From positions 1-42,418 of the forward strand of contig CAZSRG010000004.1 in assembly GCA_964609315.1 (NCBI GenBank): a stretch of DNA of 42,418 nucleotides, given 5' to 3'. Source of the DNA: an uncultured Planctomycetia bacterium (lineage in GTDB: Bacteria; Omnitrophota; Gorgyraeia; Duberdicusellales; Duberdicusellaceae). The notes beneath the pieces were generated by a model. It was not told the DNA's origin and searched no databases. It saw only the letters and a list, made by a program, of their open reading frames with translations. Positions within the stretch are counted from its first letter, which is position 1; the number at the start of each line of letters is the position of its first letter. Both the position numbers and the translations under genes were made by a program. Below are positions 1,869 to 42,418 of the stretch, piece after piece.

Positions 1869-4403
1869 CTATTTAGTGGCTTCCAGCCAGTTTTTCCCTG
1901 ACTGGATATTAACTTTCAAAGGGACAGATAATTCTACTGTCCGTTCCATTTCCTCTTTAACTATTCTTTCTGCCTGCTCAAGTTCATCTCTTTTAACATC
2001 AAAAACAAGCTCATCATGTATCTGGATGATAAGCCGGGAAACCATTCTCAAATCCTTAAATCTATTGTAGATCGATACCATCGCTATTTTTATGATATCA
2101 GCCGCCGTCCCCTGAATAGGGGCGTTTACTGCCTGCCTGAAAGCATATTCCCTTAAAGATTTATTCGGGCTGTTGATATTTCTTAAATATCTCCTCCTCC
2201 CGAAAATTGTCTCCACAAATTTGTACTTTCTTACAAACTCCAGAGTCCTGTCAATATACTCCTTGACTTTCGGGTACCTCAAGAAATAACTTTCAATAAA
2301 ACTTTCTGCTTCAGGAACGCTTATCTTCAATTCCTTTGACAAACCGTAAGGGCTCATACCGTAAACAATCCCAAAATTTATGCGTTTGGCAAATGACCTT
2401 TCCGAAGGAGTAACTTCATTTTCTTCCTTAGCAAATAATAAAGACGCTGTGCTGAGATGGACATCCTTACCGGAATTAAAAGCTGTTGTCAAATTTCTGT
2501 CGCCGGATATGTGAGCCAGTATCCTGAGTTCTATCTGGGAATAATCAGAGCTCAAGATAAACCCGTCTTTAAAAGAAGGGATGAAAACTGACCTGAACTC
2601 TTTTCCCTCTTTGCCGCGGACAGGGATATTCTGAAGATTGGGAGAAAAAGATACCAGCCTTCCGGTAACACTTGAAACCTGGCTGAATTTAGGGAATATT
2701 CTCCCCTTATTCTTTTCAGCGCTTTCTAAGAAAGGACCGGCATAAGTAGAAATCAGCTTTGAAAGTTTACGGTAATCTAATATCTTTCCTACGACCGGAT
2801 GCGCGCCTAAAAGTTTCGTTAAAGATTCTTCATTGGTAGAGAATCCAGTCTTGGTCTTCTTAACCGGGCTAAGTTTCAGTTCAGAAAACAATAATACGGA
2901 TAATTGTTTAGGAGAATCAAGGTTAACTCCCTTATCTGAATACCGCAATATTGATTTTTCTAAAATGCCTTTCTTTTCCCTCAAAGAAGACAGCACCTCT
3001 TTTAAACGGGAAGTATCTAAACTTACGGGAGACTCCTCCATCCAGGAAAGCACATCGATTAAAGGCATTTCAATCCGGTAAAAGATCCGGCCAAGATTCT
3101 CCTCCCGCAATTTATTTCTCAGCATGTCCGACAATTCTTCCAAATAATATGCTTCATCCGCAGCGCCTGCGTTAGATAAAGATATCCCCGTATATTCTAA
3201 AAGAACATCCTCAAAAGAACCCGCGCGGGAATCCCAGCCCAAAAGAAATGCCGCTATCATAACATCAAAATAAGGAGGGATTATACGTACTCCTTTCAAA
3301 TAAGCCTCTGCTTTCTGTTTCTTTAAATCAAAGGATACCTTCTCTATATCAGGATTAATCAAAATATCCTTGATCTTTTCCGTTTCAAAACTATAGACTT
3401 TTTTACGGAAAGAAAGAAAGCTTCCTTTTTCTGAAATATGAAAAACTGTTCTTTTTGATTTGAGTATGTCCTCTAATAACCCTTCAGTATAGCCGGCCTC
3501 CGCCTGCCTGCTGCGCAAAGCTTCGTCCTTAGCAGAGAATTCTTTCAGAAGAGATTTAAAGCCCAGTTCTTTAAACAAACCGCAGACTCTTTCAGTATCT
3601 ATTTCACCTATTTTCAGTTCTTCTAATGCCATATCAAAAGGGACGTTTTTATCCAACATGGCTAACTCTCTGCTTAGAAAGGCTGTTTCTTTAGAAGAAG
3701 AAAGCATGTTTTTTAAACGGCTGCTGCTTATCATATCCGTATTATTGAACAATTCATCTATCCCTCCAAAACGCTCTATTAAAGACTTAGCAGTCTTAGG
3801 GCCGATACCTTTCACCCCCGGTATATTGTCAACAGAATCTCCGGATAAAGCGAACAAGTCGGGAATATCTTCGGGATTAACGCCAAGGATTTCTTTTACT
3901 TTCTTCTCATCAAAAAAGATGTTCTTGTGAGGATCATAAACAATAACTTCTCTATCCTTTACCAGCTGTAGAATATCTTTATCAGAACTAACCGCTACAC
4001 TAACCATATTCCGCATACAAGCTTTCTTTGAAAGAGTAGCTATGATATCATCCGCTTCATACCCCTCTTTTTCACACACAGGCACAGATAACGCTGACAG
4101 GACTTCCCTTACTAAAGACATCTGTTCTTTGAACCCGTCCGGCGCGGCAGGACGGTTGACTTTATAATCCTTGAATTTATCACTCCGGAAAGTACGGTGC
4201 GAAACATCAAAGCATACAGCCATATATACCGGAGAGAATTCTTTGATTATTTTACGCAGGGTGTTTATAAAACCGAAAACTGCCCCTGTAGGCAATCCTT
4301 TTGAAGAACTTAAGCCTTTTATAGCATAAAAGGACCGGTAGACAAAAGCTGTCCCGTCAACTAAATAAAGGGTATTACCGGAATCAAAAATATCTTTGTC
4401 CAC
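1869..4403 (-). CDS. polA: DNA polymerase I (5'-nuclease plus family A polymerase)
   Basis: 844 aa with polymerase motifs DYSQIELR, RSFAKRINFGIVYG and QIHDELVF, plus an N-terminal FEN-like region. GTG start. Classic 3'-5' exonuclease carboxylate motifs are not evident by eye. Confidence 0.93.
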   Translation of the reverse strand: MDKDIFDSGNTLYLVDGTAFVYRSFYAIKGLSSSKGLPTGAVFGFINTLRKIIKEFSPVYMAVCFDVSHRTFRSDKFKDYKVNRPAAPDGFKEQMSLVREVLSALSVPVCEKEGYEADDIIATLSKKACMRNMVSVAVSSDKDILQLVKDREVIVYDPHKNIFFDEKKVKEILGVNPEDIPDLFALSGDSVDNIPGVKGIGPKTAKSLIERFGGIDELFNNTDMISSSRLKNMLSSSKETAFLSRELAMLDKNVPFDMALEELKIGEIDTERVCGLFKELGFKSLLKEFSAKDEALRSRQAEAGYTEGLLEDILKSKRTVFHISEKGSFLSFRKKVYSFETEKIKDILINPDIEKVSFDLKKQKAEAYLKGVRIIPPYFDVMIAAFLLGWDSRAGSFEDVLLEYTGISLSNAGAADEAYYLEELSDMLRNKLREENLGRIFYRIEMPLIDVLSWMEESPVSLDTSRLKEVLSSLREKKGILEKSILRYSDKGVNLDSPKQLSVLLFSELKLSPVKKTKTGFSTNEESLTKLLGAHPVVGKILDYRKLSKLISTYAGPFLESAEKNKGRIFPKFSQVSSVTGRLVSFSPNLQNIPVRGKEGKEFRSVFIPSFKDGFILSSDYSQIELRILAHISGDRNLTTAFNSGKDVHLSTASLLFAKEENEVTPSERSFAKRINFGIVYGMSPYGLSKELKISVPEAESFIESYFLRYPKVKEYIDRTLEFVRKYKFVETIFGRRRYLRNINSPNKSLREYAFRQAVNAPIQGTAADIIKIAMVSIYNRFKDLRMVSRLIIQIHDELVFDVKRDELEQAERIVKEEMERTVELSVPLKVNIQSGKNWLEATK

Positions 4404-4548
4404 AAATGTCAGTAGGTATAAAACCGGCGGAAATCAAACCTTGATTCTCTCTGTTTCAAGAATACCAGCCTCTAAATCTGTATGTTTCTGTTTATTTTTA
4501 ACAGGGAAAACTAAATAATGGCGGATATTTTCGATAGATAAAAACGGG

Positions 4549-5358
4549 CTATTCTTTCGGAATTTTCGGGACTAAGCTCATAGCCTTTCTGAGTTCCTGA
4601 AGTAAAGACAAATAATCCTTTTCTTCAAGATAATTCAATCCATTTTCCATGTATCCTTTTATACTTTTGCGTAACGCCGCGGCCTCAGCAGCTGTATAAT
4701 ACTTTTGGGCATCATTTAACAGCTTTTTATCTGAAGGATTTAAACCTATCACTGTTTTAAACTCTCCTTCAGCCTGCTGATACCGGCCTTTTCCTAATGC
4801 CTTAGACCCCAAATCAAAATGTAACCATGCTTCTTTCAGCCTCTGCCGTTCCCGTTTATACACCAAATTTTTGGACAAAGTAAGAGCCTTGTCCTCTAAT
4901 TCATCCCTCATAGCCCGGGGATAAGCCCCTAACTTAATCAAATGTTCCCTCGCTTTTTGAGTCCAATACTCTCTCCTATCACCTAAGAAATAGCGTTTTC
5001 CCCAATAATAAGAAGCCTTAGACACATTATTCTTTTTTTCATAGAGGAACCCCAAATTAGCATAGGGCGCTAAATATTTGGAATCAACTCTAATAGCTTC
5101 CAAATACATCTTCTCGGCTTTATCCAAAAAACCCATCTTTTCATAAATAACCCCTGCATCATTATAAGCTTCCTTATAAGAAGGGTCAGCCCCAATGGCT
5201 TTAAGATAAAAGGATAACGCGTCCTGGTAATTCCCCATACTTTGAAGCTTATAGCCCTGTCCACAGTAACTCTGAGCCTGTTCTCTAAGAACTCCTGAGG
5301 GATATACCGGGAAGATAATACTTATAAAAGATAAGGCGAGGATGATCCTTTTCAACAT
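4549..5358 (-). CDS. secreted tetratricopeptide (TPR) repeat protein
   Basis: 269 aa with an N-terminal hydrophobic signal-like segment. Repeated A-x-x-x-Y-x-x-A-I/L-x-x-D/N-P TPR-like units (ALSFYLKAIGADPSY, AEKMYLEAIRVDSKY). Confidence 0.6.
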   Translation of the reverse strand: MLKRIILALSFISIIFPVYPSGVLREQAQSYCGQGYKLQSMGNYQDALSFYLKAIGADPSYKEAYNDAGVIYEKMGFLDKAEKMYLEAIRVDSKYLAPYANLGFLYEKKNNVSKASYYWGKRYFLGDRREYWTQKAREHLIKLGAYPRAMRDELEDKALTLSKNLVYKRERQRLKEAWLHFDLGSKALGKGRYQQAEGEFKTVIGLNPSDKKLLNDAQKYYTAAEAAALRKSIKGYMENGLNYLEEKDYLSLLQELRKAMSLVPKIPKE

Positions 5359-5492
5359 AACCTATTTTGTTTTAACTTATCATATTATTCGGATCCTGTC
5401 AATAAAAAACACCAAATTCTCATGTCCAATTCCCTGACAACAATTCAACCATTTAACAATATAACAGTTTAACAGTTTGACAATTTAACCAT

Positions 5493-6467
5493 TTAACGCA
5501 GAATTCTATTTACTAAATCCTCCGGGCTGTATCCTTCACGAGAAAAATTAAATATTTCTCTGCCTTCAAAAAGATTAGAACCCGCGGCCGCGCCCTGCCG
5601 GAAAGCAAGATCCCTATTACCGGCAAATCCTTTTTGAAAATATACATCTGAATTTATCATATCTCCGCAGGAAAAACAAAAATCATAACCTAACCTCAGA
5701 GTCTCATCAACCTTAATCGCGCTGTTACGAATTAAAGCAGGGGTATCTTTCACAATGTCTGTATCCGGCGAAAGCACCGTATCTAAAAACAGTAAATCGC
5801 AAGCTAAGAATTTACCCGAAGACATCTTTACGGCTCTCACTCTGGATTCTCCTAAGGCTTCGCTAATATTTTCACCGGGAAGAAAATCTATACCCTTTCC
5901 TCTGAAGATAGAGGCTATTTTATCTTTGTATTCCGAAGGGAAAGAGTTAAATTCAGGAATTATGGCCTTAATTTCCTTATTGCAAATACTCCTGATTTTC
6001 AAAGATAGATCAACTGACATCAAAGTTTCACCATAAACGACAATGTGATTAAACATCCTGATGCTTTCTTTTAACCCTGAAGGCTTTACCCTCCCTAAAT
6101 AATAGACGCCCTCTTTATATTCACCGGCTATGCCGAGTTTTTTAGGCTTTAGGCCGCAGGCTAAAACTAACTTATCGAAAGACAAAGGAGTCCCTTTTTT
6201 CAAAAAGACTTTTTTCTTTTCGAAATTTACTCTTACTGCTTTGTCATTAATGATTTCTATCCCGGGAAAGATTTTTCTTAATTCTTCAAAAGATACAAAA
6301 AAATCTGTATCCGAAACCTTTCCGGCCAGCCAGTCCGATAAAAGGCACTTACGAAAAGGAAACGGTTCTTTTTCAATCAAAGAAACGTTAATACCTTCCT
6401 TATCTCTGCTTATATGCTCAATACAAGCACTTCCTGATATCCCTCCGCCTATAATAACTACTTTCAT
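5493..6467 (-). CDS. FAD-dependent pyridine nucleotide-disulfide oxidoreductase family protein
   Basis: N-terminal Rossmann motif VVIIGGGISGSA. I place the start at the ATG at 6465-6467 (MKVVIIGGG), not the longer track ORF. The second dinucleotide-binding motif looks degenerate. Confidence 0.6.
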   Translation of the reverse strand: MKVVIIGGGISGSACIEHISRDKEGINVSLIEKEPFPFRKCLLSDWLAGKVSDTDFFVSFEELRKIFPGIEIINDKAVRVNFEKKKVFLKKGTPLSFDKLVLACGLKPKKLGIAGEYKEGVYYLGRVKPSGLKESIRMFNHIVVYGETLMSVDLSLKIRSICNKEIKAIIPEFNSFPSEYKDKIASIFRGKGIDFLPGENISEALGESRVRAVKMSSGKFLACDLLFLDTVLSPDTDIVKDTPALIRNSAIKVDETLRLGYDFCFSCGDMINSDVYFQKGFAGNRDLAFRQGAAAGSNLFEGREIFNFSREGYSPEDLVNRILR

Positions 6468-7732: not shown

Positions 7733-8062
7733 AAAACTCTAAACTCTTCAGCCATAGGCTGATTCTAAACAAATCCTGAAAGCAAACTCTAAATTCTAAC
7801 CAAATCCTAAATCCTAATTTCTAAATTCTAAATAAATTCTAAATTTCAATCTCAAATGTTCTAAACTTTATTTTGGACTCTGCATCTTTCTGTTTTGGTC
7901 ATTTGATATTATTTAGCCTGCCTGCGTCAAGGCTTCCCTCGGCTTCGCCGAGAGGCGAGCGCCGAGAGGCAAGCGGCAGACAGGTATTTAGGGTTTATTT
8001 ATTATTTGGCATTCCGGCCTCTGTCCTTATGTATGATATCAAGACCTGACACCTGATACTGA
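7733..8062. repeat. family-1 element (mosaic, subtype A-like) with embedded GC-rich hairpin
   Basis: ctaaa heptad arm, a ctcttcagccataggctgat module shared with 38148-38170, GC hairpin 7927-7984, and right arm tatttagggtttatttattatttggc. Confidence 0.8.
7927..7984. repeat. GC-rich hairpin module, long version
   Basis: cctgcctgcgtcaaggcttccctcggcttcgccgagaggcgagcgccgagaggcaagcggcagacagg. Homologous in reverse complement to 12744-12797 and carries an internal cgccgagaggc duplication. Confidence 0.8.
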
Positions 8063-8520: not shown

Positions 8521-8735
8521 GGTATTATCAAGAATATTTTTGTTCTCTAAAACTCTAAACCCGAAACTCTAAATAAACCCCAAACATAAAACCTCAAACT
8601 CAAAACGGTAATAAATATAATACTCTTTGTTTTGGGTTTTGTGTTTCCTTCATTTTGAATTTGTTTACCCCGTTAGAGAATTTTGTCTAACATAGATTCT
8701 CTCTAACGGGGTTTAGGATTTAGAATTTAGGATTT
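8521..8735 (+). repeat. family-1 element, subtype B
   Basis: Core is aaaacggtaataaatataatactctttgttttggg. Arms are of aaac/ctaaa heptads versus tttagg heptads. The right arm overlaps the last codons of trmD. Confidence 0.85.
8668..8711. repeat. hairpin insert (ccccgttagagaa...ttctctctaacgggg) in the right arm of the family-1 element
   Basis: Imperfect stem of about 13 bp. It sits between ..gaatttgttta and tttaggatttag, the same relative site as the other inserts. Confidence 0.75.
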
Positions 8736-9476
8736 AGTGTTTCTTCCCCTTCTGCCTTCTGTAACAGGTGTCTGTCCTCTTTTATCCTTTAACAAAAGGT
8801 CCGGCCTTCTAACCATAGTCCTTTGTAAAGCCTGTTTTTCCCTCCAGTCCTTTATCCGCTTATGGTTACCCGAAAGAAGGACTGAAGGGACTCTCCATCC
8901 TTTAAAAATTCCCGGCTTAGTATAATCAGGATAATCAAGAAGCCTTTTTTCAAAACTTTCGTCTTTTACTGAATCAGGATTGCCGGGCACGCCCGGAATA
9001 AGCCTTGCCAAACAGTCAACCAATACCATAGCGGGAATTTCTCCTCCGGAAAGTATATAATCTCCTATGGATATTTCTTCATCAACTAAATGTTCCCTGA
9101 CTCTCTCGTCAACGCCCTCATAACGGCCGCAGATAAGAATAAGATGTTTCTTCTTAACCAGTCTTCTACCTTCTTTCTGAGTTAAGGCCTTCCCCTGAGG
9201 ACTTAAAAGAACAGTCCTTATATTCTTCCCGGATTTACTATATAACTTCTTTACTTTCTCTACAGCCCTGAATATTGGCTGGCACTGTAAAACCATACCC
9301 GGGCCGCCCCCATAAGGAGACGCGTCAACTTTTTTATGCTTATTATCTGTATAATCTCTTAAATTATGAACAGCTATATCGAGAAGTTTTTTGTCCCTGG
9401 CTATCTTTACCGTTCCGGAGGAAAAGACTTCCCGAAACATTTCGGGGAATATAGTAATTATATCTATCCGCATCAT
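8727..9476 (-). CDS. trmD: tRNA (guanine37-N1)-methyltransferase
   Basis: 249 aa with MRIDIITIFPEMF and the LSGGEIPAMVLVD SPOUT-knot motifs. The last codons and stop lie inside an intergenic repeat arm. Confidence 0.9.
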   Translation of the reverse strand: MMRIDIITIFPEMFREVFSSGTVKIARDKKLLDIAVHNLRDYTDNKHKKVDASPYGGGPGMVLQCQPIFRAVEKVKKLYSKSGKNIRTVLLSPQGKALTQKEGRRLVKKKHLILICGRYEGVDERVREHLVDEEISIGDYILSGGEIPAMVLVDCLARLIPGVPGNPDSVKDESFEKRLLDYPDYTKPGIFKGWRVPSVLLSGNHKRIKDWREKQALQRTMVRRPDLLLKDKRGQTPVTEGRRGRNTKS

Positions 9477-9528
9477 AATGCTAAATCCAAAATTCCAGTA
9501 TTACAGATACCGCGAAAAACTTAACCTC

Positions 9529-10689
9529 TCAGCCGTCATCTTTATCAGAATCTAAAACCGCGCTATTCTCAAAATAACCGGCCAGAAAATCTTTTTTGAA
9601 TTTACGAAAACTCCCCTTTTTAATTTCCCGGCGTATCCTCTTCATAAACTCCATAAACCACCATATATTATGAAAAGAAATAAGTTTTCCGCCTAAAACT
9701 TCATTGGCATTAATAAGGTGGCGGATATACCCGCGGGAGAAATTCCGGCAGGCGTAACAGCCGCATCCTTCGTCTAAAGGCATAGAATCTTTACGAAAGG
9801 CCGAATTACGCACTACAATTTTCCCCTTGTCCGTAAAGGCTGTTCCTGTGCGGCCCAAACGAGTCGGGATAACACAGTCAAAAAGATCCATGCCTCTATC
9901 TACTAATTCTAAAATATCTTCGGGCTCTCCTATCCCCATAACATATCTCAAAGAACCCTCAGAAAAATTCCCGGAAAGAAAATCAATGATATTATATCTT
10001 AAATCCTTCGATTCGCCAACACTTAATCCGCCTATGGCAAAATGATCATATCCTGTTCCAATAAGAAATTCTAAAGACTTCTTCCTCAACTCAGGATAAA
10101 TTGAACCTTGTATAATGCCTAAAGGTAAAGGCGAATAGGCAAACTTTTCAAGGCACTCCTTAAATGCCTGTTGAGACAGTTTCGCCCAATGATTAGTTAA
10201 CGCCAGTGAATCTTCAGCGTACTTTAAGGTTACCGGAAACTTCAAACATTCATCTAAAGGCAAAACAACGCTGGAGCGGACTCTAAACTGCATTCTGATT
10301 ATATCTTCGGGTTTTAAGAAATGCCGCGACCCGTCAATATGGGAATTAAATTCTACCCCTTCCTTATAAACTTTTATTAACTTAGCTAAACTAAAGATCT
10401 GGTATCCTCCGCTGTCAGTTATAACCGGTTTTTTCCACCCCATAAACTTACGCAGGCCGCCGAGGCCCTCAATAACATCTATGCCAGGACGAAGGTACAA
10501 ATGGTAGATATTGCTTAATAATCCCTGCACACCGCAGGAATTTAAATCTTTCGGAGAAAGAGTCTTTACCGCCGCCTGGGTAGCTACCGGGAAAAAAGCA
10601 GGAGTTAAAACTTCTCCGTTTAAACTCACAATTCTGCCCAGCCTGGCTTTACATTCTTTGCTTTGATAAATCAAGTCAAAATTATTCAT
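9529..10689 (-). CDS. tgt: queuine tRNA-ribosyltransferase
   Basis: 386 aa with DCVIPTR and the CGCYAC...H zinc motif. Confidence 0.9.
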   Translation of the reverse strand: MNNFDLIYQSKECKARLGRIVSLNGEVLTPAFFPVATQAAVKTLSPKDLNSCGVQGLLSNIYHLYLRPGIDVIEGLGGLRKFMGWKKPVITDSGGYQIFSLAKLIKVYKEGVEFNSHIDGSRHFLKPEDIIRMQFRVRSSVVLPLDECLKFPVTLKYAEDSLALTNHWAKLSQQAFKECLEKFAYSPLPLGIIQGSIYPELRKKSLEFLIGTGYDHFAIGGLSVGESKDLRYNIIDFLSGNFSEGSLRYVMGIGEPEDILELVDRGMDLFDCVIPTRLGRTGTAFTDKGKIVVRNSAFRKDSMPLDEGCGCYACRNFSRGYIRHLINANEVLGGKLISFHNIWWFMEFMKRIRREIKKGSFRKFKKDFLAGYFENSAVLDSDKDDG

Positions 10690-10921: not shown

Positions 10922-11968
10922 CTAAAACAACCTATCCTGAACTTCTTTACTATAATCTATGCCTAAATGTCTATAGGCTGTTTCTAAAGCGACTCTCCCC
11001 CTTGGGCTTCTTTTTATAAACCCTATTTTTAAAAGGTAAGGTTCAACAACATCAATAAGAGTATCCGGTTCTTCTCCCAAACTGGCGGAAATTGGTTCAA
11101 CTCCGGCAGGCCCCCCTTGATAAATATCAATAAGCACCTTTAAGTACTTCCGGTCAAGCTCATCTAACCCTTTACCGTCAATCTTTAAAAAGTCCAGGGC
11201 CTTGCCGACAGTCTCAGGCTTAATCAGACCTTCTTCTTTAACCTGGGAATAATCCCTGACTCTCCTCAACAGCCGGTTAGCTATCCGGGGAGTCCCCCTT
11301 GCCCTCCGCGAAATCTCTAAAGCTGACTGTTTATCAATACTTACACTTAAAAGTTTTGACGAACGTTCAATAACTAAGGATAAATCATTCTCTGAGTAGA
11401 AATCAAAATGAAGAAATAACCCAAACCTGCTTCTAAGAGGCGCGCTTAAAAGGCCTTCCCTGGTAGTCGCCCCAATTAGAGTAAAAGGTTTGAGATTAAA
11501 CTTTATACTTTTGGCATAAGGGCCTTTGTCAATAACAAAGTCTATCTGAAAATTTTCTATCGCCGGGTAAAGAAACTCCTCTACTATCTTACTAAGCCTA
11601 TGTATTTCATCTATAAAGAGGATATCCCCCCTCTCCAAATTAGTCAGTATGCCTATTAAATCCCCGGCGCGCTCTATTGCCGGCCCTGATGTTGCCACGA
11701 TTTTAGAAGAAAGCTCATTAGAAACACAATGAGCCAAAGAAGTTTTGCCTAATCCCGGCGGCCCGGACAGCAAAAGATGTTCTAAAGGTTCGCTTCTCTT
11801 TTTCGCGGCCTCAATAGCTATCTTCAAAGAAGAAATATTATCTCTCTGGCCTACGAATTCAGAGAGGCCCCTGGGCCTGAGAGAAAGGTTAAATACAAAT
11901 TCTTCTTCAGTCTCCTGAGGAACATCAAGCCGGCCCGCTTGAGGAAATTTATTGTTTTCTTTAACCAT
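10922..11968 (-). CDS. ruvB: Holliday junction branch migration ATPase RuvB
   Basis: 348 aa with Walker A GPPGLGKTS, Walker B FIDEIHRL and a RuvB C-terminal winged-helix region. Confidence 0.92.
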   Translation of the reverse strand: MVKENNKFPQAGRLDVPQETEEEFVFNLSLRPRGLSEFVGQRDNISSLKIAIEAAKKRSEPLEHLLLSGPPGLGKTSLAHCVSNELSSKIVATSGPAIERAGDLIGILTNLERGDILFIDEIHRLSKIVEEFLYPAIENFQIDFVIDKGPYAKSIKFNLKPFTLIGATTREGLLSAPLRSRFGLFLHFDFYSENDLSLVIERSSKLLSVSIDKQSALEISRRARGTPRIANRLLRRVRDYSQVKEEGLIKPETVGKALDFLKIDGKGLDELDRKYLKVLIDIYQGGPAGVEPISASLGEEPDTLIDVVEPYLLKIGFIKRSPRGRVALETAYRHLGIDYSKEVQDRLF

Positions 11969-12710: not shown

Positions 12711-12931
12711 GAAAATTAAACTCTAAACTCAAAATCCTAAATCCCTGTCTGCCGCTCGCCTCTCGGCGAAACCGATGGAAACCTTGGCACAGGCAGGCTA
12801 AATAAACACAAAATGAAAGAAAACACAAAAACCAAAACAAAGAACATTATATTTATTATCGTTTTGGGTTTGAGACATTTGAGTTTTAGATTTATTTAGA
12901 GTTTCGAGTTTAGGACTTAGAGTTTAAGATT
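12711..12931 (-). repeat. family-1 element, subtype B, inverted relative to the others
   Basis: The reverse complement of its core aligns with the cores at 8560-8665 and 21830-21900. Carries the GC hairpin at 12744-12797. Confidence 0.85.
12744..12797. repeat. GC-rich hairpin module
   Basis: cctgtctgccgctcgcctctcggcgaaaccgatggaaaccttggcacaggcagg, the reverse-complement homologue of 7927-7984. Confidence 0.8.
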
Positions 12932-12952
12932 ATACAATTGTCTATTTATCTT

Positions 12953-19035: not shown

Positions 19036-19214
19036 CCGTTCTGTCAAAAACATTTTTATTTTCTAAAACTCTAAACACCAAACCCGAAACTCTAAATAAA
19101 TCTAAAATCACAAACTCAAAATTCAAAACATTCATCATCTTCTATCTTTATATTGTTTTGGAATTTGGATTTTCTTCATTTTGAGTTTATTTAGAATTTA
19201 GGATTTAGGATTTT
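19036..19214 (+). repeat. family-1 element, subtype B
   Basis: Starts with ccgttctgtcaaaaacatttttatt and has ctaaa heptads. The right arm is ttcttcattttgagtttatttagaatttaggatttagg. Confidence 0.85.
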
Positions 19215-19250
19215 CTCCCCCCTCATATCAACGTAATGGACTCCAAATAT

Positions 19251-21767: not shown

Positions 21768-21903
21768 CAAACTCTAAATCCTAAACTCGAAACTCTAAAC
21801 TCTAAATAAATCCCAAACTTAAATCTTTTAAACTCAAAACAATAAATATAATACTCTTTGTTTTGGGTTTTGGGTTTTGGATTTTGTGCTTTCTTCATTT
21901 TGA
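21768..21903 (+). repeat. family-1 element, subtype B, left part (interrupted by X1)
   Basis: Ends ...ttcttcattttgag, then GTTAAC of X1 begins. The expected continuation (a)gaatttaggatttagaattt resumes at 22113. Confidence 0.85.
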
Positions 21904-22112
21904 GTTAACCGGGAAAATGCTGTTGAGTGTGCGAAATATCCATAACACCTAGTAATCTAAATAATTACATTAAACGGACGTTGTATTAAAAAGTACACAG
22001 CATTTTCCCCGTAGGTAACCTCAGTCCTATCCGCCTTTCCCCCGCCTACGGCGTGGTAAACGCGGGGCTGACCCTGCGGGCAAATAATGCTAACCGCATT
22101 ATTTGGGTTAAC
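21904..22112 (+). repeat. element X1: 209-nt candidate structured RNA or miniature mobile element bounded by GTTAAC
   Basis: GTTAAC at both ends. A perfect 13-bp long-range stem pairs 21911-21923 (gggaaaatgctgt) with 21997-22009. Terminal 10-bp hairpin at 22081-22105. Homologous in reverse complement to 41607-41884. Confidence 0.8.
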
Positions 22113-22136
22113 AGAATTTAGGATTTAGAATTTCTA
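22113..22136 (+). repeat. family-1 element right-arm remainder after the X1 insertion
   Basis: agaatttaggatttagaatttc matches the right arms at 19195-19214 and 28580-28594. Confidence 0.8.
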
Positions 22137-25465: not shown

Positions 25466-25657
25466 GACAAATATATATACATCGCGCGCCCGATAAAAAC
25501 TCTAAACTCCAAATCCTAAATTCTAAATAAACTCAAAATTCAAATGTTCAAATGTTCAAAACAAACTTCTTTTCAATGAGTTATGAAGAACGTTTTGAAT
25601 TTTAATCATTTTGATTTTGGATTTGTTTAGGTTTTAGAGTTTAGGATTTAGGGTTTA
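25466..25657 (+). repeat. family-1 element between dxr and cdsA
   Basis: The left flank is identical in pattern to 1641-1680. Has ctaaa heptads, a caaatgttcaaatgttcaaaac centre and the right arm tttgtttaggttttagagtttaggatttagggttta. Confidence 0.85.
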
Positions 25658-25677
25658 CATGTCTGTGTATTCAATAT

Positions 25678-28407: not shown

Positions 28408-28600
28408 ATTGTCAAAGCTATCTTTGTTTTCTAAAACTCTAAACTCTAAATCCAAAACTCTAAATAAACCTAAAACTCAAATGCTTTAAACTCAAAACAT
28501 TAATAAATATACTGCTTTTGCTTTAAACTATATTGTTTTGGGTTTTGGGTTTTCTTCATTTTGAGTTTGTTTAGGGTTTAGAATTTAGGATTTTCTCCCC
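28408..28600 (+). repeat. family-1 element, subtype B
   Basis: Starts attgtcaaagctatctttgtt and has ctaaa heptads. The right arm is ttcttcattttgagtttgtttagggtttagaatttaggatttt. Confidence 0.85.
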
Positions 28601-30027: not shown

Positions 30028-31749
30028 TCACATGGAATCTAAAACGCCATCCAAAGATCCACCCCCAACCTGAAAGCTGAAAATCCTGTTATTATTTAAA
30101 AGAATAACCCCCCCTCTATTTATGCCTAATTCTGCGGATAGACTATTGTTATCTTTCAATGTCTTTTCTCCTTTATCCGATAAAGCGAACTCAGTTACTT
30201 TATCCGTATCAATCCCCAACTTCTTAAACGGCAGGTTCCAGAAACTGCTTGTTATGGTGTTAACCCTCCCTAAAAGATATTTCCAGAACTTATTAGGATA
30301 AAGAACTTTAACACTTAAAATCCTCAGGCATTCTTCTTTTTCAGGCAGGCTTCCCTTTTTGAAAATGAAATGGACTTCTAAATTAAGTTTTTTCTTCTCA
30401 GCTTTAGTCTTCACTTTCCTCAAGATATCAGAAAACCCTTTCTGAAAAGGTTCAATGAATAAATCAACCTTTCTATCAATAACCGGCCGGCTCAGATAAT
30501 AAAATATTCCCGAAAACCGGGAAGAAAGGAAGTACTTCTTACCTTTCTTTTCAAAAGCCCCGGATAATTCATCAAAGTTTTGCGCCTCTTCAACATTCCG
30601 GCTGAAGACAAATACCGGCAGAGTACTAATCCCAAAAGTTTTTATAAGTTTTTTAGCTTCCGGAGATTTGTAATCTATTTTCCTAAATTTAACTCCCCGG
30701 AAATACTTCTTCAAAAAAGACTCGGTTAATTTTGTAGAACATGCCGGGCAGTTTTCCATACCTATAACAACGGCTTCTAAAGGTTTCCCTTTTCGGTATA
30801 AGCATTGAGCAGGCTGTCCTCCTATACCCGGGTTGCTGCAAGACCTTACCATCCCCTCTTTCTCCGGGCAGTTAGAATCCAAAAAACATTCGGGAATAAT
30901 TTTTTTAACACTTGGATCTTCCGCGCGGGTCAAAGGTAAAGCTATGTCTTCAGAAGTATATTCTTTAACATTACCATCTGCCAATTTAATTATCAATTTC
31001 CCAATCTTTTTCGCCTGAAAATAAGGGTAGGCTTCTATTGTCTTCCCCTCTCTCTGAAGGCCTTGCCCATTTGAAGGATAACTGAATATAACAAGGTTAA
31101 TTTCAGGAAACTTACTCAAAAGGCCATTGGTTTCATCCCTGCTTAGAGAAGACAGTAAAACGACAGCGCCTACTTTCTCCTTCTTAAAAAAGCTGACTGC
31201 TTTACTTAAAGAATCTTCGTACTCTCCAACAGCCACATTAAAAGACGATAAAGACTTTGGGCTTATTCCGGTAATTCCTACTCTTATAGAACCCGCCTGT
31301 TTTATAATATAAGGCTTGACTCCTTTCAAAGTTACATTGCAGGAAACAAAAGGGAAATTTGTCTTGTTTATGCTTTTCTCAAAAAAATCTCTGCCGAGCC
31401 TGAATTCATCTTCAGCAATCCCCGCGGCATCATACTTCATTGCCTGCATTGCTCTTAAAGCAGCTTCTGTCCTCTGTTTATCTAAATCTACCCCTATACT
31501 GAACTCATCCAAAGGCCCTGCCGCGAATACACTGCCTGAATCAACCAATATTAAATCTTTATCCTTTGCCCTTTCCTTTTTAACAGCAGCCGCCCTTCTG
31601 GATACCCCTCCGCCGACACTTGCCGGACAATGGCCGCAGGGATAAAGGGAAGAATGAGAAGAACCGGTATAAAGGATTGTCAAATCCTGAGAGAATACGG
31701 GAGAAACAAAAAGAGAAATAATAGCGGATAGAGCTATGAATAAACGCAT
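30028..31749 (-). CDS. secreted protein: degenerate 5'-nucleotidase/metallophosphoesterase-like N-terminal part plus thioredoxin-fold-like CPAC C-terminal part
   Basis: Signal peptide. Layout is ILYTGSSHSSLYPCGHCP...GGVSRRAAAV...LILVDSGSVF, and the usual metal-ligand motifs are substituted. A central CPAC motif is present. I place the start at the ATG at 31747-31749, with GGAGG 8 nt upstream. Confidence 0.4.
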   Translation of the reverse strand: MRLFIALSAIISLFVSPVFSQDLTILYTGSSHSSLYPCGHCPASVGGGVSRRAAAVKKERAKDKDLILVDSGSVFAAGPLDEFSIGVDLDKQRTEAALRAMQAMKYDAAGIAEDEFRLGRDFFEKSINKTNFPFVSCNVTLKGVKPYIIKQAGSIRVGITGISPKSLSSFNVAVGEYEDSLSKAVSFFKKEKVGAVVLLSSLSRDETNGLLSKFPEINLVIFSYPSNGQGLQREGKTIEAYPYFQAKKIGKLIIKLADGNVKEYTSEDIALPLTRAEDPSVKKIIPECFLDSNCPEKEGMVRSCSNPGIGGQPAQCLYRKGKPLEAVVIGMENCPACSTKLTESFLKKYFRGVKFRKIDYKSPEAKKLIKTFGISTLPVFVFSRNVEEAQNFDELSGAFEKKGKKYFLSSRFSGIFYYLSRPVIDRKVDLFIEPFQKGFSDILRKVKTKAEKKKLNLEVHFIFKKGSLPEKEECLRILSVKVLYPNKFWKYLLGRVNTITSSFWNLPFKKLGIDTDKVTEFALSDKGEKTLKDNNSLSAELGINRGGVILLNNNRIFSFQVGGGSLDGVLDSM

Positions 31750-31893
31750 AATCAAAACCTCCTTACATTAGCCGCTAAAACAAAAGACATAAAACAGATT
31801 GATACATTATTAAATTGCTAAACTGTTAAACTGCTAAACAAAAACAAAATATAGAAAATAGATAAATACACAAGACTCAATCATCCTTTGCCG

Positions 31894-34606: not shown

Positions 34607-34618
34607 TTCTCCTCTCCT

Positions 34619-34749
34619 CAATGAGGCCGCAGCTTATGGAGTCCGAAGGATGACATAAGCTGCATGGCCGAATTGATCCCGCCGAAGGTTGGTAAATTGT
34701 CAACGATAATTTACCAACATCTTCTCTGAGGCGGGATTACCTTAATATT
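34619..34749 (-). repeat. element Y-A: two-hairpin structured unit directly upstream of the aminotransferase SD
   Basis: Plus-strand order is caatgag, hairpin 1 (ggcc gcagcttat...ataagctgc..ggcc), gaattgatcccgccgaagg, hairpin 2 (ttggtaaatt..aatttaccaa), then catcttctctgaggcgggattaccttaatatt. Confidence 0.85.
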
Positions 34750-34932
34750 ATAAATCAGCTATCTGTAATTACTCTGGCTGTTGATAGATAATTCTTTCGT
34801 TTTAGCATAATTAGCGAGTCTGCCATTCGCCATCCTCTGTATTTGTTAACAATTCAACCATTTAACAATATATTAATGTATTAATCTCTTCTCTCATTCT
34901 CTGACTCCTGCCCTCTGACTTCTGTCCTCTGC

Positions 34933-35526
34933 CTATTTATGCGGCAGGATAACTTCATCAATCAAGCCGTACTGTTTAGCTTCATCCGCGCTCATAAAAT
35001 AATCTCTGTCAGTATCTTCTTTTACTTTCTTAACCGTTTTTTTGGTATGAGCAGAGAGGATTCCATTTACCTTTTCTCTCAGCCTGAGTATTTCCTTTGT
35101 CTGAATAGAGATATCTTCCGCTGTCCCCTGAGCTCCGCCCCAAGGCTGATGAATCATAATCCGGGAATTAGGCAGAGCAAAACGTTTACCATCTTTGCCC
35201 GCTGCCAAGAGTAAAGCGCCCATACTCGCCGCCTGGCCTATACAGTAAGTAGCCACATCCGGTTTAACAAACTGCATCGTATCATATACAGCCAATCCCG
35301 CGGTGATGGAACCACCCGGAGTGTTGACATACACGCTTATATCTTTTGAAGGATCTTCCATCTGGAGAAAAAGCATTTGAGCGATAACCACATTCGCTAC
35401 GTTATCATCTATCGGTGTCCCGACAAAGATTATCCTGTCTTTTAACAAACGGGAATAAATATCATATGCCCTTTCAGTCCGCTGAGTCTGCTCAATTACT
35501 ATAGGAACATACCCCTGATTTTTCAT
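34933..35526 (-). CDS. clpP: ATP-dependent Clp protease proteolytic subunit
   Basis: Catalytic contexts GQAASMGA and MIHQP. I place the start at the ATG at 35524-35526 ([10 protein letters not shown]), which has GAGGAGG upstream. The track ORF start runs into repeat Y-B. Confidence 0.95.
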
Positions 35527-35538
35527 AAACAACCTCCT

Positions 35539-35670
35539 CAATGAGGCCGCAACTTATGGAATCCGAAGGATGACATAAGCTGCATGGCCGAATTGATCCC
35601 GCCGAAGGCTAGGGTAATTATCAAAGATAATTACCCTGCATCTTCTCTGAGGCGGGATTACCTTAATATT
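35539..35670 (-). repeat. element Y-B, directly upstream of the clpP SD
   Basis: Hairpin 1 matches Y-A except for 2 substitutions. Hairpin 2 is the alternative version agggtaatta..taattaccct. Confidence 0.85.
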
Positions 35671-35681
35671 TATTAATTAAC

Positions 35682-35813
35682 CAATGAGACTGTGATTTTT
35701 TATTATTCCCAATGATAAAAAATCACTTAGTCGAATTGATCCCGCCGAAGGCTAGGGTAATTATCAAAGATAATTACCCTGCATCTCCTCTGAGGCGGGA
35801 TTTCCTTAATATT
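35682..35813 (-). repeat. element Y-C
   Basis: Same conserved single-stranded blocks. Hairpin 1 is replaced by the unrelated 12-bp stem gtgattttttat/ataaaaaatcac. Hairpin 2 matches Y-B. Confidence 0.85.
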
Positions 35814-35823
35814 TACAAATTAG

Positions 35824-35951
35824 CAGTGAGCGCACAACTTACAGAACGAAGTGATTGTAAGTTGTCCGCGCGAATTGATCCCGCCGAAGGTTGGTAAATT
35901 GTCAACGAGAATTTACCAACATCTTCTCTGAGGCGGGATTACCTTAATATT
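35824..35951 (-). repeat. element Y-D
   Basis: Hairpin 1 is replaced by gcgc-acaacttaca/tgtaagttgt-gcgc. Hairpin 2 matches Y-A. Confidence 0.85.
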
Positions 35952-35960
35952 ATAAATTAG

Positions 35961-36013
35961 CTCTTTGCTCTTTGTTACTATCTCTTTGCTAAGAGCCATG
36001 AGCTATGAGCCAA
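35961..36013. repeat. degenerate heptamer tandem array (ctctttg/ccatgag type)
   Basis: Reads ctctttg ctctttg ttactat ctctttg ctaagag ccatgag ctatgag. Shares the ccatgagctat-agcc segment with 1606-1640. Confidence 0.75.
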
Positions 36014-36940: not shown

Positions 36941-37188
36941 CAAACTCTAAATCCTAAATTCTAAACTCTAAACAATTTCAAATATCAAATGTTCTAAATC
37001 CTAAACTAAACTCTAAATTCTAATACCAAATGTTCTAAACATTGTTTTGAATTTTGTATTTTGAACATTTGAGATTGTTTAGTATTTAGAATTTAGTGCT
37101 TAGGATTTATTTATCATTTGGTCATCTGACTTCTGCCCTTTGTCTTCTATCAATGTGTAGGCCTGACCCCTATTCCGGTATTTGTGTT
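36941..37188. repeat. family-1 element, subtype A, plus right-flank module
   Basis: 36961-37124 differs at 3 positions from 1696-1859. The right flank tttggtcatctgacttctgccc...caatgtgtaggcctgac recurs at 38311-38392. Confidence 0.9.
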
Positions 37189-37951: not shown

Positions 37952-38246
37952 AAAACTTCACTCCATCTTACACTCCGTAAATGTCGTGGATTATCTTTAC
38001 GAAGTATAATACCGAGTTATTCTTTTGCTCCCCCACTAATAACTCGCCATTAATCACTAACTACTAAATTCTCTAAACAAAGTCTGAAAGCAAATTCTAA
38101 ATTCTAAACTCTAAACAATTTCAAATATCAAATGTTCTAAATTCTAAACTCTTCAACTATAGGCTGATCCGCCTCAGGCGGAAAATTCTAATACTGTTCT
38201 AAACATTGTTTTGAATTTTGTATTTTGAACATTTGAGATTGTTTAG

Positions 38247-38276
38247 CCTGCCTGCGCCAAGGTTTCGGCAGGCAGG
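38247..38276. repeat. 30-bp GC-rich hairpin module cleanly inserted into the family-1 right arm
   Basis: cctgcctgcgccaaggtttcggcaggcagg is present here and absent at the matching junction gattgtttag|tatttag (37081-37083). Confidence 0.9.
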
Positions 38277-38340
38277 TATTTAGGATTTAGTGCTTAGGAT
38301 TTATTTATTATTTGGCCATCTGACTTCTGCTCTCTGCCTG

Positions 38341-39755: not shown

Positions 39756-40748
39756 CTATAAAACAACGCCTGCTTTAAGCAAATCCTGGACATCTAAAAG
39801 GCCGGCTGCCTGCCCCTGTTTATCTACCACCGGAGCTTCATCTATCTTTTTCTCTTCTAAAATACGCATAGCTTCCGCGGCAAGCATATCTTTTAAAAAA
39901 ACAACCGGATTCTTAGTCATAACCCTGTTGACTTTCCTCTTAGATAAAAGAGGGTCTTTCCCTAAGTTCCGGCGGAGATCCCCGTCAGTGAAAATACCTA
40001 TGACTTTACCTCTATCATCAACAATAATCGCGGCCCCCGCCCTGGCCTGAGTAATAGCTATAAGCGCTTGAGAAACTCTTGCCGAACCGTTTATCACCGG
40101 ATTTGCTTTTCCCTTGCGCATACAATCTCCCACTTTAAGCAAGAGTTTTCTTCCTAAACTGCCTTTGGGGTGATACCGGGCAAAATCTTTCGCCTTAAAC
40201 CTCTTCATTTTCTGCAGAACCATAGCCAAAGCGTCGCAGAGGCTTAACATAACAGTAGTAGAAGTAGTAGGCGCTAAACCTAAAGGGCAGGCTTCCCGGC
40301 TGACTTTCACGTCCAAAGACACATCTGAATACCTGGCAAGGAAAGAATTCTTATTGCCGGTAAGAGATATAATCTTAGCTCCTATCCTCTTTAAAAAGGG
40401 AAGGAGGACCTTAACTTCTTCTGTTTCTCCGCTGTAAGAAAGGACAACCGTTAAATCTTCTTTCAAAACCCTGCCTAAATCGCCGTGGACGGCTTCTGCC
40501 GGATGAAGCCAGATAGACGGCGTTCCGGTTGAAGACAGAGTAGCCGATAACTTCTGGGCGATTATTCCGGCTTTGCCCATACCGGTAGCTACAACTTTGC
40601 CTCTGCATTTTAACAAAAGGCTTACAGCCGAAACAAAATTTTCTCCCAGCCTTCCGGCAAGGATTTTGACTTCCTCAGATTCTAAAACAAGAATTTCTTT
40701 TGCCGCCTTCAATATCTCTAAGGATTTACTTCCGGCAGGGTTACGCAT
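39756..40748 (-). CDS. kdsD: arabinose-5-phosphate isomerase (SIS plus CBS pair)
   Basis: 330 aa with the SIS motif GMGKAG and C-terminal tandem CBS-like segments. Confidence 0.85.
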   Translation of the reverse strand: MRNPAGSKSLEILKAAKEILVLESEEVKILAGRLGENFVSAVSLLLKCRGKVVATGMGKAGIIAQKLSATLSSTGTPSIWLHPAEAVHGDLGRVLKEDLTVVLSYSGETEEVKVLLPFLKRIGAKIISLTGNKNSFLARYSDVSLDVKVSREACPLGLAPTTSTTVMLSLCDALAMVLQKMKRFKAKDFARYHPKGSLGRKLLLKVGDCMRKGKANPVINGSARVSQALIAITQARAGAAIIVDDRGKVIGIFTDGDLRRNLGKDPLLSKRKVNRVMTKNPVVFLKDMLAAEAMRILEEKKIDEAPVVDKQGQAAGLLDVQDLLKAGVVL

Positions 40749-41541
40749 TTAAGACTCCCATTATTTTAAATACTTGATTAAGGATTGTTTCTACTTCCTT
40801 AAAATTTATGCTGGTAGAACTGTCCGATAAGGCTTTTTCAGGATCAGGATGGACCTCGCAGAAAATCCCGTCAACGCCGAAAGCCGCGGCTGCCTTAGAC
40901 AGAGGCAGGGCATACTCTCTCTCTCCCGAAGCCCCGGACTTGCCCGCTGTTGGAAGCTGTAAAGAATGAGTTACATCAAATATCACCGGATAGCCTAACT
41001 TTCTTAACTTCCCGAAAGACTTGAAATCAACCACCAAGTTATGATAGCCGAAACACACACCCCGTTCAGTAAGGAGAATTTTCCGGTTACGGCAGGATTC
41101 TATCTTCTGAACAGCATATTTCATATCTTCAGGGGCCAAGAACTGCCCTTTCTTAATATTAACCGCCTTACCGGTTTTCGCCGCCTCTAAAAGCAAATCA
41201 GTCTGCCGGCAGAGAAAAGCGGGTATCTGGATAACATCCAGGACCTCAGCGGCAGGTTTAACCTGCGAAACACAATGGACATCGCTTAAAATTTTGACCT
41301 TGAACCTGTCCCTTACCTTTTTTAAGACTCTGAGCCCTTTTTTTAGGCCAGGGCCCCTGAAAGACTTTAAAGAAGTCCGGTTCGCCTTATCAAAACTGGC
41401 TTTGAAGATAAAATCTACGGGATAAACAGAGGTGATTTTTTTGAGTTTCTCCGCTATATCAAGAGTGAGTTTTTCATTCTCAATAACACACGGCCCGGCA
41501 ATAAAGATAAATCTTTTAGATTTAAGTTTTTTTGTTTTCAT
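40741..41541 (-). CDS. kdsA: 3-deoxy-8-phosphooctulonate (Kdo8P) synthase
   Basis: Has KASFDKANRTS and other DAHP/Kdo8P-synthase motifs. I place the start at the ATG at 41539-41541, with GGGAGA upstream. The track ORF is over-extended. Confidence 0.9.
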   Translation of the reverse strand: MKTKKLKSKRFIFIAGPCVIENEKLTLDIAEKLKKITSVYPVDFIFKASFDKANRTSLKSFRGPGLKKGLRVLKKVRDRFKVKILSDVHCVSQVKPAAEVLDVIQIPAFLCRQTDLLLEAAKTGKAVNIKKGQFLAPEDMKYAVQKIESCRNRKILLTERGVCFGYHNLVVDFKSFGKLRKLGYPVIFDVTHSLQLPTAGKSGASGEREYALPLSKAAAAFGVDGIFCEVHPDPEKALSDSSTSINFKEVETILNQVFKIMGVLNA

Positions 41542-41606
41542 TATTTCTCCCAACCGCGTCTGATATCGGATTGCTCTTTGAAAAACTCTCAAAAAATAAG
41601 TTTTTT

Positions 41607-41884
41607 GTTAACCCAAATAACGCGGTTAGCATTATTTGCCCGCCTGTGCCCGCAAGGGTACCTGTGCCCGCAAGGATACAAGGGTAAAAGGCCGGGATTA
41701 CCTAAGGGGAAAATGCTGTGTACTCTTTAATACAACCTCTGTTTAATACAACTATTTAGGCTGCCAGGCGTTATGAGCCCTGTTAGAAAAAGTGTATCTT
41801 TTTTCTCTAACCCCTAACAGGGTGAGCATCTTGCGTTTTCAAACGCGAAACCTGCCCTTAGGATACAGCATTTTCCCGGTTAAC
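41607..41884 (-). repeat. element X2: 278-nt copy of X, minus-strand sense, between the VR-like gene region and kdsA
   Basis: GTTAAC at 41607-41612 and 41879-41884. The 13-bp stem pairs 41707-41719 with 41865-41877. Terminal hairpin at 41614-41638. Has the conserved block ttgtattaaa-agtacacagcattttcccc-taggtaa. Confidence 0.8.
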
Positions 41885-42048
41885 TCTTCTATCTTTGCCA
41901 TAGCATCTAAAACATCTTTTAGATATAGACTGAGAATAATAGTATCAGAAACAGTTATGTTTTTCAAGAGTTTTTGCTGAGGGGTAACACGGGCAAGAAT
42001 TTGTAAGTTCTCCTGAACCGAATCAGTAAAACGGAGCCAGGCCTGCAC
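41839..42048 (-). CDS. doubtful small ORF (69 aa, GTG start) whose last 15 codons lie inside element X2
   Basis: No convincing SD. The C-terminal KIEELTGKML and central DSVQENLQILA loosely recall helices of Avd / 23S-IVS four-helix-bundle proteins. It may be a remnant or non-coding. Confidence 0.2.
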   Translation of the reverse strand: MQAWLRFTDSVQENLQILARVTPQQKLLKNITVSDTIILSLYLKDVLDAMAKIEELTGKMLYPKGRFRV

Positions 42049-42199
42049 ATTTTACATTTCAACTTAAATCAGAAAACAGACGCGGATTTTTCCAGAATCA
42101 AACCCCCATACAATAGTTATTCGGCAATGCCAATCTCTATTCCCCTCTCTCCGGTATATATTTTTCAAAGAGTAAAAGGGTAAAAGTACAAAGTGTTAC

Positions 42200-42418
42200 T
42201 TAGAAGCCCTGCCGACAAACGCGCCCGCCATAGCCGCTGCCACGACTGGTGAAAGTGTGAGCGGCATTGCCGCGGTCAGATACCCGCGTGTAGTGGGTGA
42301 AGCTACCCCAACTACCGCCCCGAAACCCGGAGCCTGTCGCTCCGGTAACCTCTCCTGAACTGGACCCCGGCCAGTCAGATATATCAGCATTACCGTTTGA
42401 AGACAGTTCTCCATTCCC
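42200..42418 (-). CDS. 3' end of a CDS truncated by the window edge; C-terminus resembles a DGR variable region in a C-type-lectin/FGE-like fold
   Basis: Frame with first codon at 42418-42416 reads ...SGFRGGSWGSFTHYTRVSDRGNAAHTFTSRGSGYGGRVCRQGF with stop at 42202-42200. 27 of the 31 codons after the W are NNY. The segment is locally GC-rich. The ORF track does not list it because the window contains no start codon for it. Confidence 0.55.
   Translation of the reverse strand, partial: GNGELSSNGNADISDWPGSSSGEVTGATGSGFRGGSWGSFTHYTRVSDRGNAAHTFTSRGSGYGGRVCRQGF

Follow-up and report, generated by a model that had tools for sequence, protein, structure and literature searches.

The contig CAZSRG010000004.1 of assembly GCA_964609315.1, from an Omnitrophota bacterium, breaks off within a minus-strand reading frame whose product resembles the C-terminal variable region (VR) of a protein diversified by a DGR, that is, by a reverse transcriptase (RT) that copies a template repeat (TR) with errors at adenines. 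The locus raises the question of whether this tail was indeed written by adenine mutagenesis, and, if so, from where it was served. The stretch analysed here, referred to throughout as the window, comprises positions 1-42,418 of the forward strand of this contig, 42,418 nucleotides in all.

The frame at the contig end is the 3' end of a 557-residue gene

Translation of the minus-strand frame that begins at 42418 yields GNGELSS...GGRVCRQGF followed by a TAA stop codon at 42202-42200, which is exactly the peptide and the stop that an initial annotation, made from the letters alone, had quoted. A recount also agrees with its figure of 27 pyrimidine-ending codons among the 31 (42307-42215) that follow the Trp codon at 42310-42308. 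Pyrimidine-ending codons account for 50.4% of the codons in the 33 other ORFs of the window, giving a binomial P of 2e-5 for 27 of 31, and a count of 27 is reached in only 4 of 10,599 windows of 31 codons. The GC-rich island reported for this segment is likewise present, with 63% GC at 42200-42330 compared to 40% in the window and 46% in the body of the gene.

The remainder of the gene lies past the end of the window. It was recovered on a JGI metagenome contig, Ga0164318_10003066 (L082), found with a profile of the tail, whose terminal 231 nt match the end of the window with 0 mismatches and which carries the full ORF of 557 aa at positions 8546-10219. An identical 557-aa protein (P0152) is encoded on the ENA contig k141_2033104 (L106); its overlap with the window is 302 nt long and contains one SNP, located in the spacer 70 nt downstream, while the VR is identical. 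Since L082 continues the frame ending at 42202-42200 upstream into a single 557-aa ORF, the ORF that the automatic list places at 42196-42414 is an artefact, as the initial annotation had suspected, and the true ORF is missing from that list because it runs off the window end. The two frames are as follows.

42200-42418, minus strand: last 72 codons and TAA stop of the 557-aa target gene, the remainder lying past the window end (translation, overlap with L082, PF03781 match, AF2 model)
42196-42414, minus strand: artefactual ORF of 72 aa, another frame of the target-tail DNA (compare translation and L082)

The target is predicted to be a secreted protein with an FGE-type lectin domain

The 557-aa protein consists of an N-terminal signal-like helix or signal peptide, a beta-sandwich and a domain of the FGE-sulfatase/CLec fold. 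A CLec/FGE-type fold had been proposed in the initial annotation, together with an HMM search of the full protein as a way of checking it; this search identifies PF03781 (FGE-sulfatase) with 39.5 bits, above the cutoff of 23.3, and in the paralogue described below the PF03781 match extends to the C-terminus. An AlphaFold (AF2) model computed from 68 homologues (pLDDT 87.5, pTM 0.90) agrees with this assignment, as a fold search with the model retrieves solved formylglycine-generating enzymes with a probability of 1.0. Based on sequence and model, the target is thus predicted to be a secreted lectin-like protein with an FGE-type C-type-lectin domain.

Catalytic members of the FGE/SUMF1 family are recognised by two cysteines that bind copper in the C-terminal segment of the active site. 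In a weak, sub-threshold profile alignment, the 'LCHESYC' segment of FGE falls on the variable VR residues; in the target these are WGSFTHYT, with no Cys. This weak alignment suggests that the target protein lacks enzymatic activity. The searches retrieved over 6,000 homologues, of which those with a named organism are nearly all proteins from Omnitrophota/Omnitrophica MAGs; the databases label them SUMF1/EgtB/PvdO or formylglycine-generating enzyme, and such enzyme labels would be misleading for this protein family.

Homologous tails belong to DGR loci

When proteins were first searched with the 72-aa tail, one match was obtained, P0001, whose locus on a 2.7-kb contig comprises a VR, an RT, a bAvd and a TR, with 19 of 20 mismatches at template adenines. 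Among 24 metagenome loci with related tails, ten carry an RT directly 3' of the target (L001, L085-L089, L091, L093, L094 and L096), and nine of those an Avd too; the contig of L087 stops within the RT, and Avd is not among its genes. TRs with A-only mismatches were found in seven to eight of the ten RT-bearing loci, whereas none was found in L087 and L093.

The closest full-length homologue, P0006 (62% identical; L111 in MAG GCA_964496355.1), is part of a cassette in the order target-bAvd-TR-RVT_1, in which 20 of 24 VR/TR mismatches fall on TR adenines; with radical-SAM and BacA genes as neighbours, this cassette looks chromosomal. The next homologue, P0153 (57% identical), is encoded in L108 of the Omnitrophota MAG GCA_028703535.1, where positions 4238-5674 hold the target, bAvd and a 106-nt TR with 17 of 17 mismatches at adenines. 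Its TR homology ends 30 nt short of the VR stop and a Y1 transposase (Y1_Tnp) gene occupies the place expected for the RT, so that the cassette is apparently decaying and cassettes in this lineage appear to be subject to decay. The identity of the window frame as a DGR target, which had been proposed from its scaffold, is supported by its relatives: homologues of the tail adjoin RT and Avd genes, and their TR/VR mismatches lie almost only at adenines.

Alignment of the window VR with the VRs and TRs of these homologues proceeds codon for codon, and the non-conserved codons are those where the TRs have AAC or AAT. The maxima of family-wide entropy fall on the same residues as the hypervariable core. 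On this basis, the following parts can be distinguished.

42201-42342, minus strand: VR, extent approximate, set by its homology with the VR/TR pair of L111 (141 nt) and by alignment with VRs and TRs of real DGRs
42231-42314, minus strand: hypervariable core, containing all 28 VR differences from the paralogue in L083, 25 of them at codon positions 1-2
42188-42230, minus strand: invariant GC-rich 3' end of 43 nt, IMH-like, spanning the stop and 12 nt beyond, 100% identical to the paralogue

The 43-nt invariant end is homologous to the 3' end that VR and TR of L111 have in common, and a cognate repeat would be expected in the form GGCTCCGGGTTTCGGGGCGG, followed by ~84 nt and GGCGGGCGCGTTTGTCGGCAGGGCTTC. 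Folding of the sequence downstream of the VR revealed no significant hairpin (z = -1.45). Just after the VR of L111 (3620-3700) there is a 13-bp palindrome (CCGTTACATCCCC ... GGGGATGTAACGG) whose loop is partly masked; the window lacks it at the matching site, where the flanking TTTTACTCTTTG motif is retained. This palindrome was considered as a DGR hairpin and dropped, since the true VR/TR pair of L108 lacks such a structure and the loop is long as well as partly masked. In another Omnitrophota MAG (L112/L113, 8398-11632), two FGE-sulfatase paralogues are found in tandem right after secretin and AAA ATPase genes, which together with other pairs of matches whose contigs agree in length suggests that tandem expansion is common in the FGE-sulfatase family.

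A paralogue differs from the target mainly at template adenines of homologous DGRs

A paralogue of 538 aa (P0158), located on L083 and L110 in the gene order recG - target - PDDEXK fragment - rsmD, is present in the same JGI and ENA samples as the target. Its VR occupies about 11470-11614 of L110. Its contig has dispersed repeats in common with the window and shows a tetranucleotide correlation of 0.97 with it; taken together with the shared samples, this means that the two genes very probably belong to one genome. A variant of the paralogue in NCBI (P0270) departs from P0158 by five residue changes within the 13-residue stretch 192-204 (GIDESTSAFHENGA versus GSNESLYAFHENGV), the VR being identical.

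While the bodies of target and paralogue have a protein identity of ~52%, their last 231 nt show 36 differences, 28 of which lie inside the 84-nt core (42231-42314). These 28 are distributed 25:3 between codon positions 1-2 and position 3, compared to 271:234 in the gene body (Fisher P 1e-4). In a test by proxy, in which the paralogue differences were scored against the TRs of homologous DGRs, 21-24 of the 28 core differences coincide with adenines of the heterologous TRs (L001, L088, L096, L108 and L111; hypergeometric P 5e-7 to 5e-10). Where the base in the L111 TR is not A, the two VRs differ from one another at 7 of 86 sites and each of them from the L111 TR at 28-30 of 86, which indicates that both share one lineage-specific template. 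Among codons encoding identical amino acids, the fraction with a synonymous difference is 0.30-0.62 in the body and declines to 0.19, 0.08 and finally 0 toward the 3' end. The final 43 nt, including 12 nt of noncoding sequence past the stop, are identical in both genes, and the loci diverge beyond them. The initial annotation had explained the pyrimidine-ending codons by AAY codons of a template mutagenised only at adenines, and the paralogues do differ from each other as two VRs from one AAY-rich template should. Judged by sequence comparison, the pattern is the trace left when one TR retrohomes into two targets.

It could be argued that no DGR was ever involved and that the paralogues diverged under diversifying selection, with gene conversion homogenising their 3' ends and codon bias generating the NNY codons. 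Such an origin would be in line with the climb in paralogue identity over ~330 nt, more than the length of a typical TR, and with the four other 31-codon windows of the contig that also reach 27 NNY codons. It fits poorly, however, with differences that shun third codon positions (25:3, P 1e-4) and fall on adenines in the TRs of homologous DGRs (P as low as 5e-10), as well as with the occurrence of true TRs in the closest homologues, and we consider it very improbable. Conversely, we hold it to be highly likely that the tail of the target was written at some time by DGR-type adenine mutagenesis.

The target lies in an LPS-core cluster without a donor cassette

The sequence that follows the VR is made up of the following elements.

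42105-42199, minus strand: spacer; blastn aligns 42105-42220, which takes in part of the VR tail, with the VR-to-avd spacer of L108 at 74% identity (also aligned by eye)
41595-41885, minus strand: dispersed structured repeat of ~200-290 nt, not part of a DGR (three copies aligned)
40741-41541, minus strand: kdsA, the next real gene downstream (PF00793, 229 bits)

The homology of the spacer to L108 stops where avd would begin. Because the next gene is kdsA, separated from the target by ~660 nt of noncoding sequence, there is no Avd/TR/RT cassette behind the target, and the cis arrangement target-Avd-TR-RT is absent at the window locus. A search of 41541-42205 with an Avd profile gave nothing. 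Pfam searches with the 72-aa tail alone and with a 69-aa ORF at 41839-42048 gave no match, and this ORF, which overlaps the dispersed repeat, is probably not a gene. An Rfam search downstream of the VR, dispersed repeat included, was equally negative; no terminator was detected downstream of the VR, and a single promoter-like match is at chance level.

Past kdsA follow kdsD, kdsC, an lptC-like gene, an ABC-type ATPase gene, the trigger factor gene and clpP. Upstream of the target, beyond 42418, lie genes for glycosyl-/heptosyltransferases, a polysaccharide deacetylase and a PfkB-type kinase as well as kdsB. With kdsB and LPS-core genes on one side and the kdsA cluster on the other, the target is situated inside a cluster for LPS core and transport. 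The best GTDB relatives of the KdsA protein encoded in the window are 56-60% identical, with Omnitrophota at the top, too distant for synteny to be informative. Neither KdsA nor KdsD had an exact database match, nor did a 34-mer from the spacer in genome, metagenome or viral contigs, and the window probably represents a slightly different assembly or strain.

The initial annotation had found neither an RT gene nor a second copy of the invariant stretch in the window. Searches by tblastn with three Avd and two RT proteins and with an RT profile on the six-frame translation agree, as they detect no Avd or RT in the window; the invariant stretch is likewise present only once, and no repeat in the window fits a template with adenines at the mismatches. 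The annotation had further placed TR and RT, if they exist, beyond 42418 or elsewhere and had proposed extending the contig past that position. A location just beyond 42418 proved wrong for at least 10 kb: the extension consists of LPS-core genes, and neither an RT nor a matching repeat was found in it. In sum, no TR, RT or Avd was found in the 42.4-kb window, in the 10 kb upstream (L082, L106) or on the paralogue contigs L083/L110, a search that covered ~52 kb of contiguous sequence at the target and 13 kb at the paralogue. The 384 retrieved proteins include no third paralogue and no TR-spanning ORF with an RVCRQGF tail. A search with a C-terminal profile built to include a translated inferred TR yielded short fragments only, which are no more than 65% identical and all lack the RVCRQGF tail, and a 20-mer and a 27-mer from the VR flanks had no exact match in 2.9 million IMG/VR viral contigs.

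The consensus VR is the same in the window, the JGI contig and the ENA contig, and is also unchanged between P0270 and P0158, which speaks weakly against frequent turnover. Three contigs from separate assemblies end near the VR stop, the window 216 nt before it, the JGI contig 12 nt after it and the ENA contig 83 nt after it; the ENA contig of the relative ends 106 nt past its own stop. These breaks fit, rather than prove, repeated or heterogeneous sequence at the VR.

A DGR at another locus of the genome may serve the target in trans

How, then, would a VR be written at a locus that has no cassette? We lean towards the view that the target is a non-adjacent (trans) target of a DGR located elsewhere in the same genome, which would also serve the paralogue. 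The last ~47 codons of the target would constitute the VR of this DGR. Its RT would copy the TR, misincorporating opposite template adenines, and the cDNA would replace the VR, with the invariant GC-rich 3' end acting as the anchor. The first two bases of AAY-derived codons would be rewritten in this process, and a ligand-binding surface would be diversified at the place occupied by the active site in FGE. As the donor cassette is absent at the target locus, the target would be served in trans, and a single TR would have written the VRs of both the target and the paralogue elsewhere in the genome. The DGR would accordingly still exist at a distance from the two copies and continue to serve both.

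A serious rival to this trans arrangement is that the VR is a fossil. The lineage would have lost the cassette, which perhaps once lay directly downstream as it does in L111, and the VR would now be frozen coding sequence. Such a loss would explain a spacer that is homologous to the one between VR and avd in L108 and yet has nothing DGR-like behind it, and L108, with its truncated TR and a transposase in the place of the RT, provides an example of a decaying cassette. Consensus VRs that are the same across assemblies and strain variants, and an RT and TR that were found neither in the window and the 10 kb upstream nor on the paralogue contigs or among the retrieved proteins, point in the same direction. 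On the other hand, the 3' ends of the two genes are identical over 43 nt and their VRs hardly differ at non-adenine sites, yet the synonymous sites of their bodies are strongly diverged, which implies that the last retrohoming was recent relative to the duplication. Moreover, the ORFs of target and paralogue are both intact, and the search for RT and TR extended over a minor part of the genome (~52 kb and 13 kb). Loss of the cassette therefore appears to us a real possibility, albeit one that we would not expect to hold.

The donor might also reside on a phage, a plasmid or another mobile element and diversify chromosomal genes in trans whenever it is present. Neither the target nor the paralogue has a cis cassette, both end in the same IMH-like sequence, and three assemblies, the window included, end less than 300 nt from the VR, all of which could be accommodated by such a donor. 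But the invariant VR flanks are without an exact match in the 2.9 million IMG/VR contigs, and the cassette of the closest homologue, L111, looks chromosomal with its radical-SAM and BacA flanks, so that we judge a mobile donor to be improbable. The same low expectation applies to its corollary, a genome that has no DGR of its own and maintains two chromosomal lectin genes with landing sites that are rewritten only in the presence of a mobile element or an element of another cell. If this were true, hypervariation of surface proteins would be a conditional trait, acquired with a borrowed element, in a possibly host-dependent Omnitrophota bacterium.

Relation to known DGR systems

The prototype DGR is that of Bordetella phage BPP-1, composed of Mtd, Avd, TR and Brt, in which adenine-specific mutagenic retrohoming acts on a C-terminal CLec VR that ends in a GC-rich IMH. 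The mechanism proposed for the window target is the same, but the target is cellular rather than phage-borne, is of the FGE and not the Mtd subtype, and has neither a cis cassette nor a significant hairpin downstream. Closest at the sequence level is the L111 cassette, whose target is 62% identical over the full length and has the same VR scaffold, the GC-rich 3' end and a similar GC content (40%). There, however, Avd, the 141-nt TR and the RVT_1 gene follow within 2 kb of the target, whereas in the window the spacer, the dispersed repeat and kdsA take their place.

FGE-sulfatase domains containing a CLec1 VR form category 'b', the largest target class, with 19% of DGRs (Wu et al., 2018). The window target resembles this class in its FGE-sulfatase domain, C-terminal VR, N-terminal extension of unknown function and AAY-type codons; the class is usually set by a TR match, while the window target is placed in it by homology and by comparison with its paralogue. 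An example of FGE-sulfatase targets with a C-terminal CLec1 VR is TvpA of Treponema denticola (PMC5758913), which shares with the window protein the C-terminal VR in an FGE-sulfatase-type CLec domain, the secretion signal and the expectation that it has no FGE catalysis. TvpA comes from another phylum and is not closely related in sequence to the window protein, being absent from the results of both the sequence and the fold searches, and the window protein has an additional N-terminal beta-sandwich. Among 372 DGRs, 45 have been credited with non-adjacent or remote targets, of which Treponema has seven (PMC5758913). The Treponema DGR thus also resembles the arrangement proposed here in having several related targets scattered away from the RT, but its donor TR and RT are known, while none was found within ~52 kb plus 13 kb in the present case.

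Since FGE-type and non-adjacent DGR targets are both well documented, the window target does not alter any concept; its only unusual points are the unlinked arrangement and the place between kdsB and kdsA. In the literature searched, Omnitrophota are tied to DGRs nowhere beyond one taxon list. Metagenome surveys anchored on the RT miss remote targets, by their own statement (PMC8144416). Scans of this kind are blind to targets like the one described here, and an ORF track drops a target that runs off its contig. The unlinked pair of VRs and the decaying cassette of L108 could serve as a system in which to study how targets persist after, or apart from, their retroelement.

Dispersed repeats and other features of the window

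The structured repeat downstream of the target occurs in three copies, at 41595-41885 (minus strand) and 21880-22125 (plus strand) of the window and at 9250-9510 of L110, in varying orientation to the neighbouring genes. It includes an inverted repeat of 13 nt (GGGAAAATGCTGT / ACAGCATTTTCCC) alongside a second hairpin (CAAATAATGC / GCATTATTTG). Arrays of 7-nt units (AAACTCT or AAATTCT and their complements) occupy most of the intergenic gaps, often as inverted pairs around a short centre. These arrays are located in the window at approximately 1670-1850, 7800-8030, 8540-8740, 12718-12940 and 19050-19220, and further at 21776-21900, 25497-25670, 28434-28600, 36942-37110 and 38085-38310; arrays resembling them precede the target genes in L106 and L110. 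An ORF of 575 aa on the minus strand (30028-31755) belongs to no Pfam family at E <= 1e-5. Around clpP, at 34614-35967, there are four nested-hairpin elements of ~91 nt (CCGAATTGATCCCGCC ... GGCGGGAT) together with longer flanking repeats (families D3, D12 and D18), and a unit similar to the ~91-nt element is found in L083 at ~11640-11700. Finally, positions 1-52 of the window recur with 100% identity at 13007-13058 of L110 and with 98% identity at 2794-2845 of L106, which indicates that the window also starts in a dispersed repeat.
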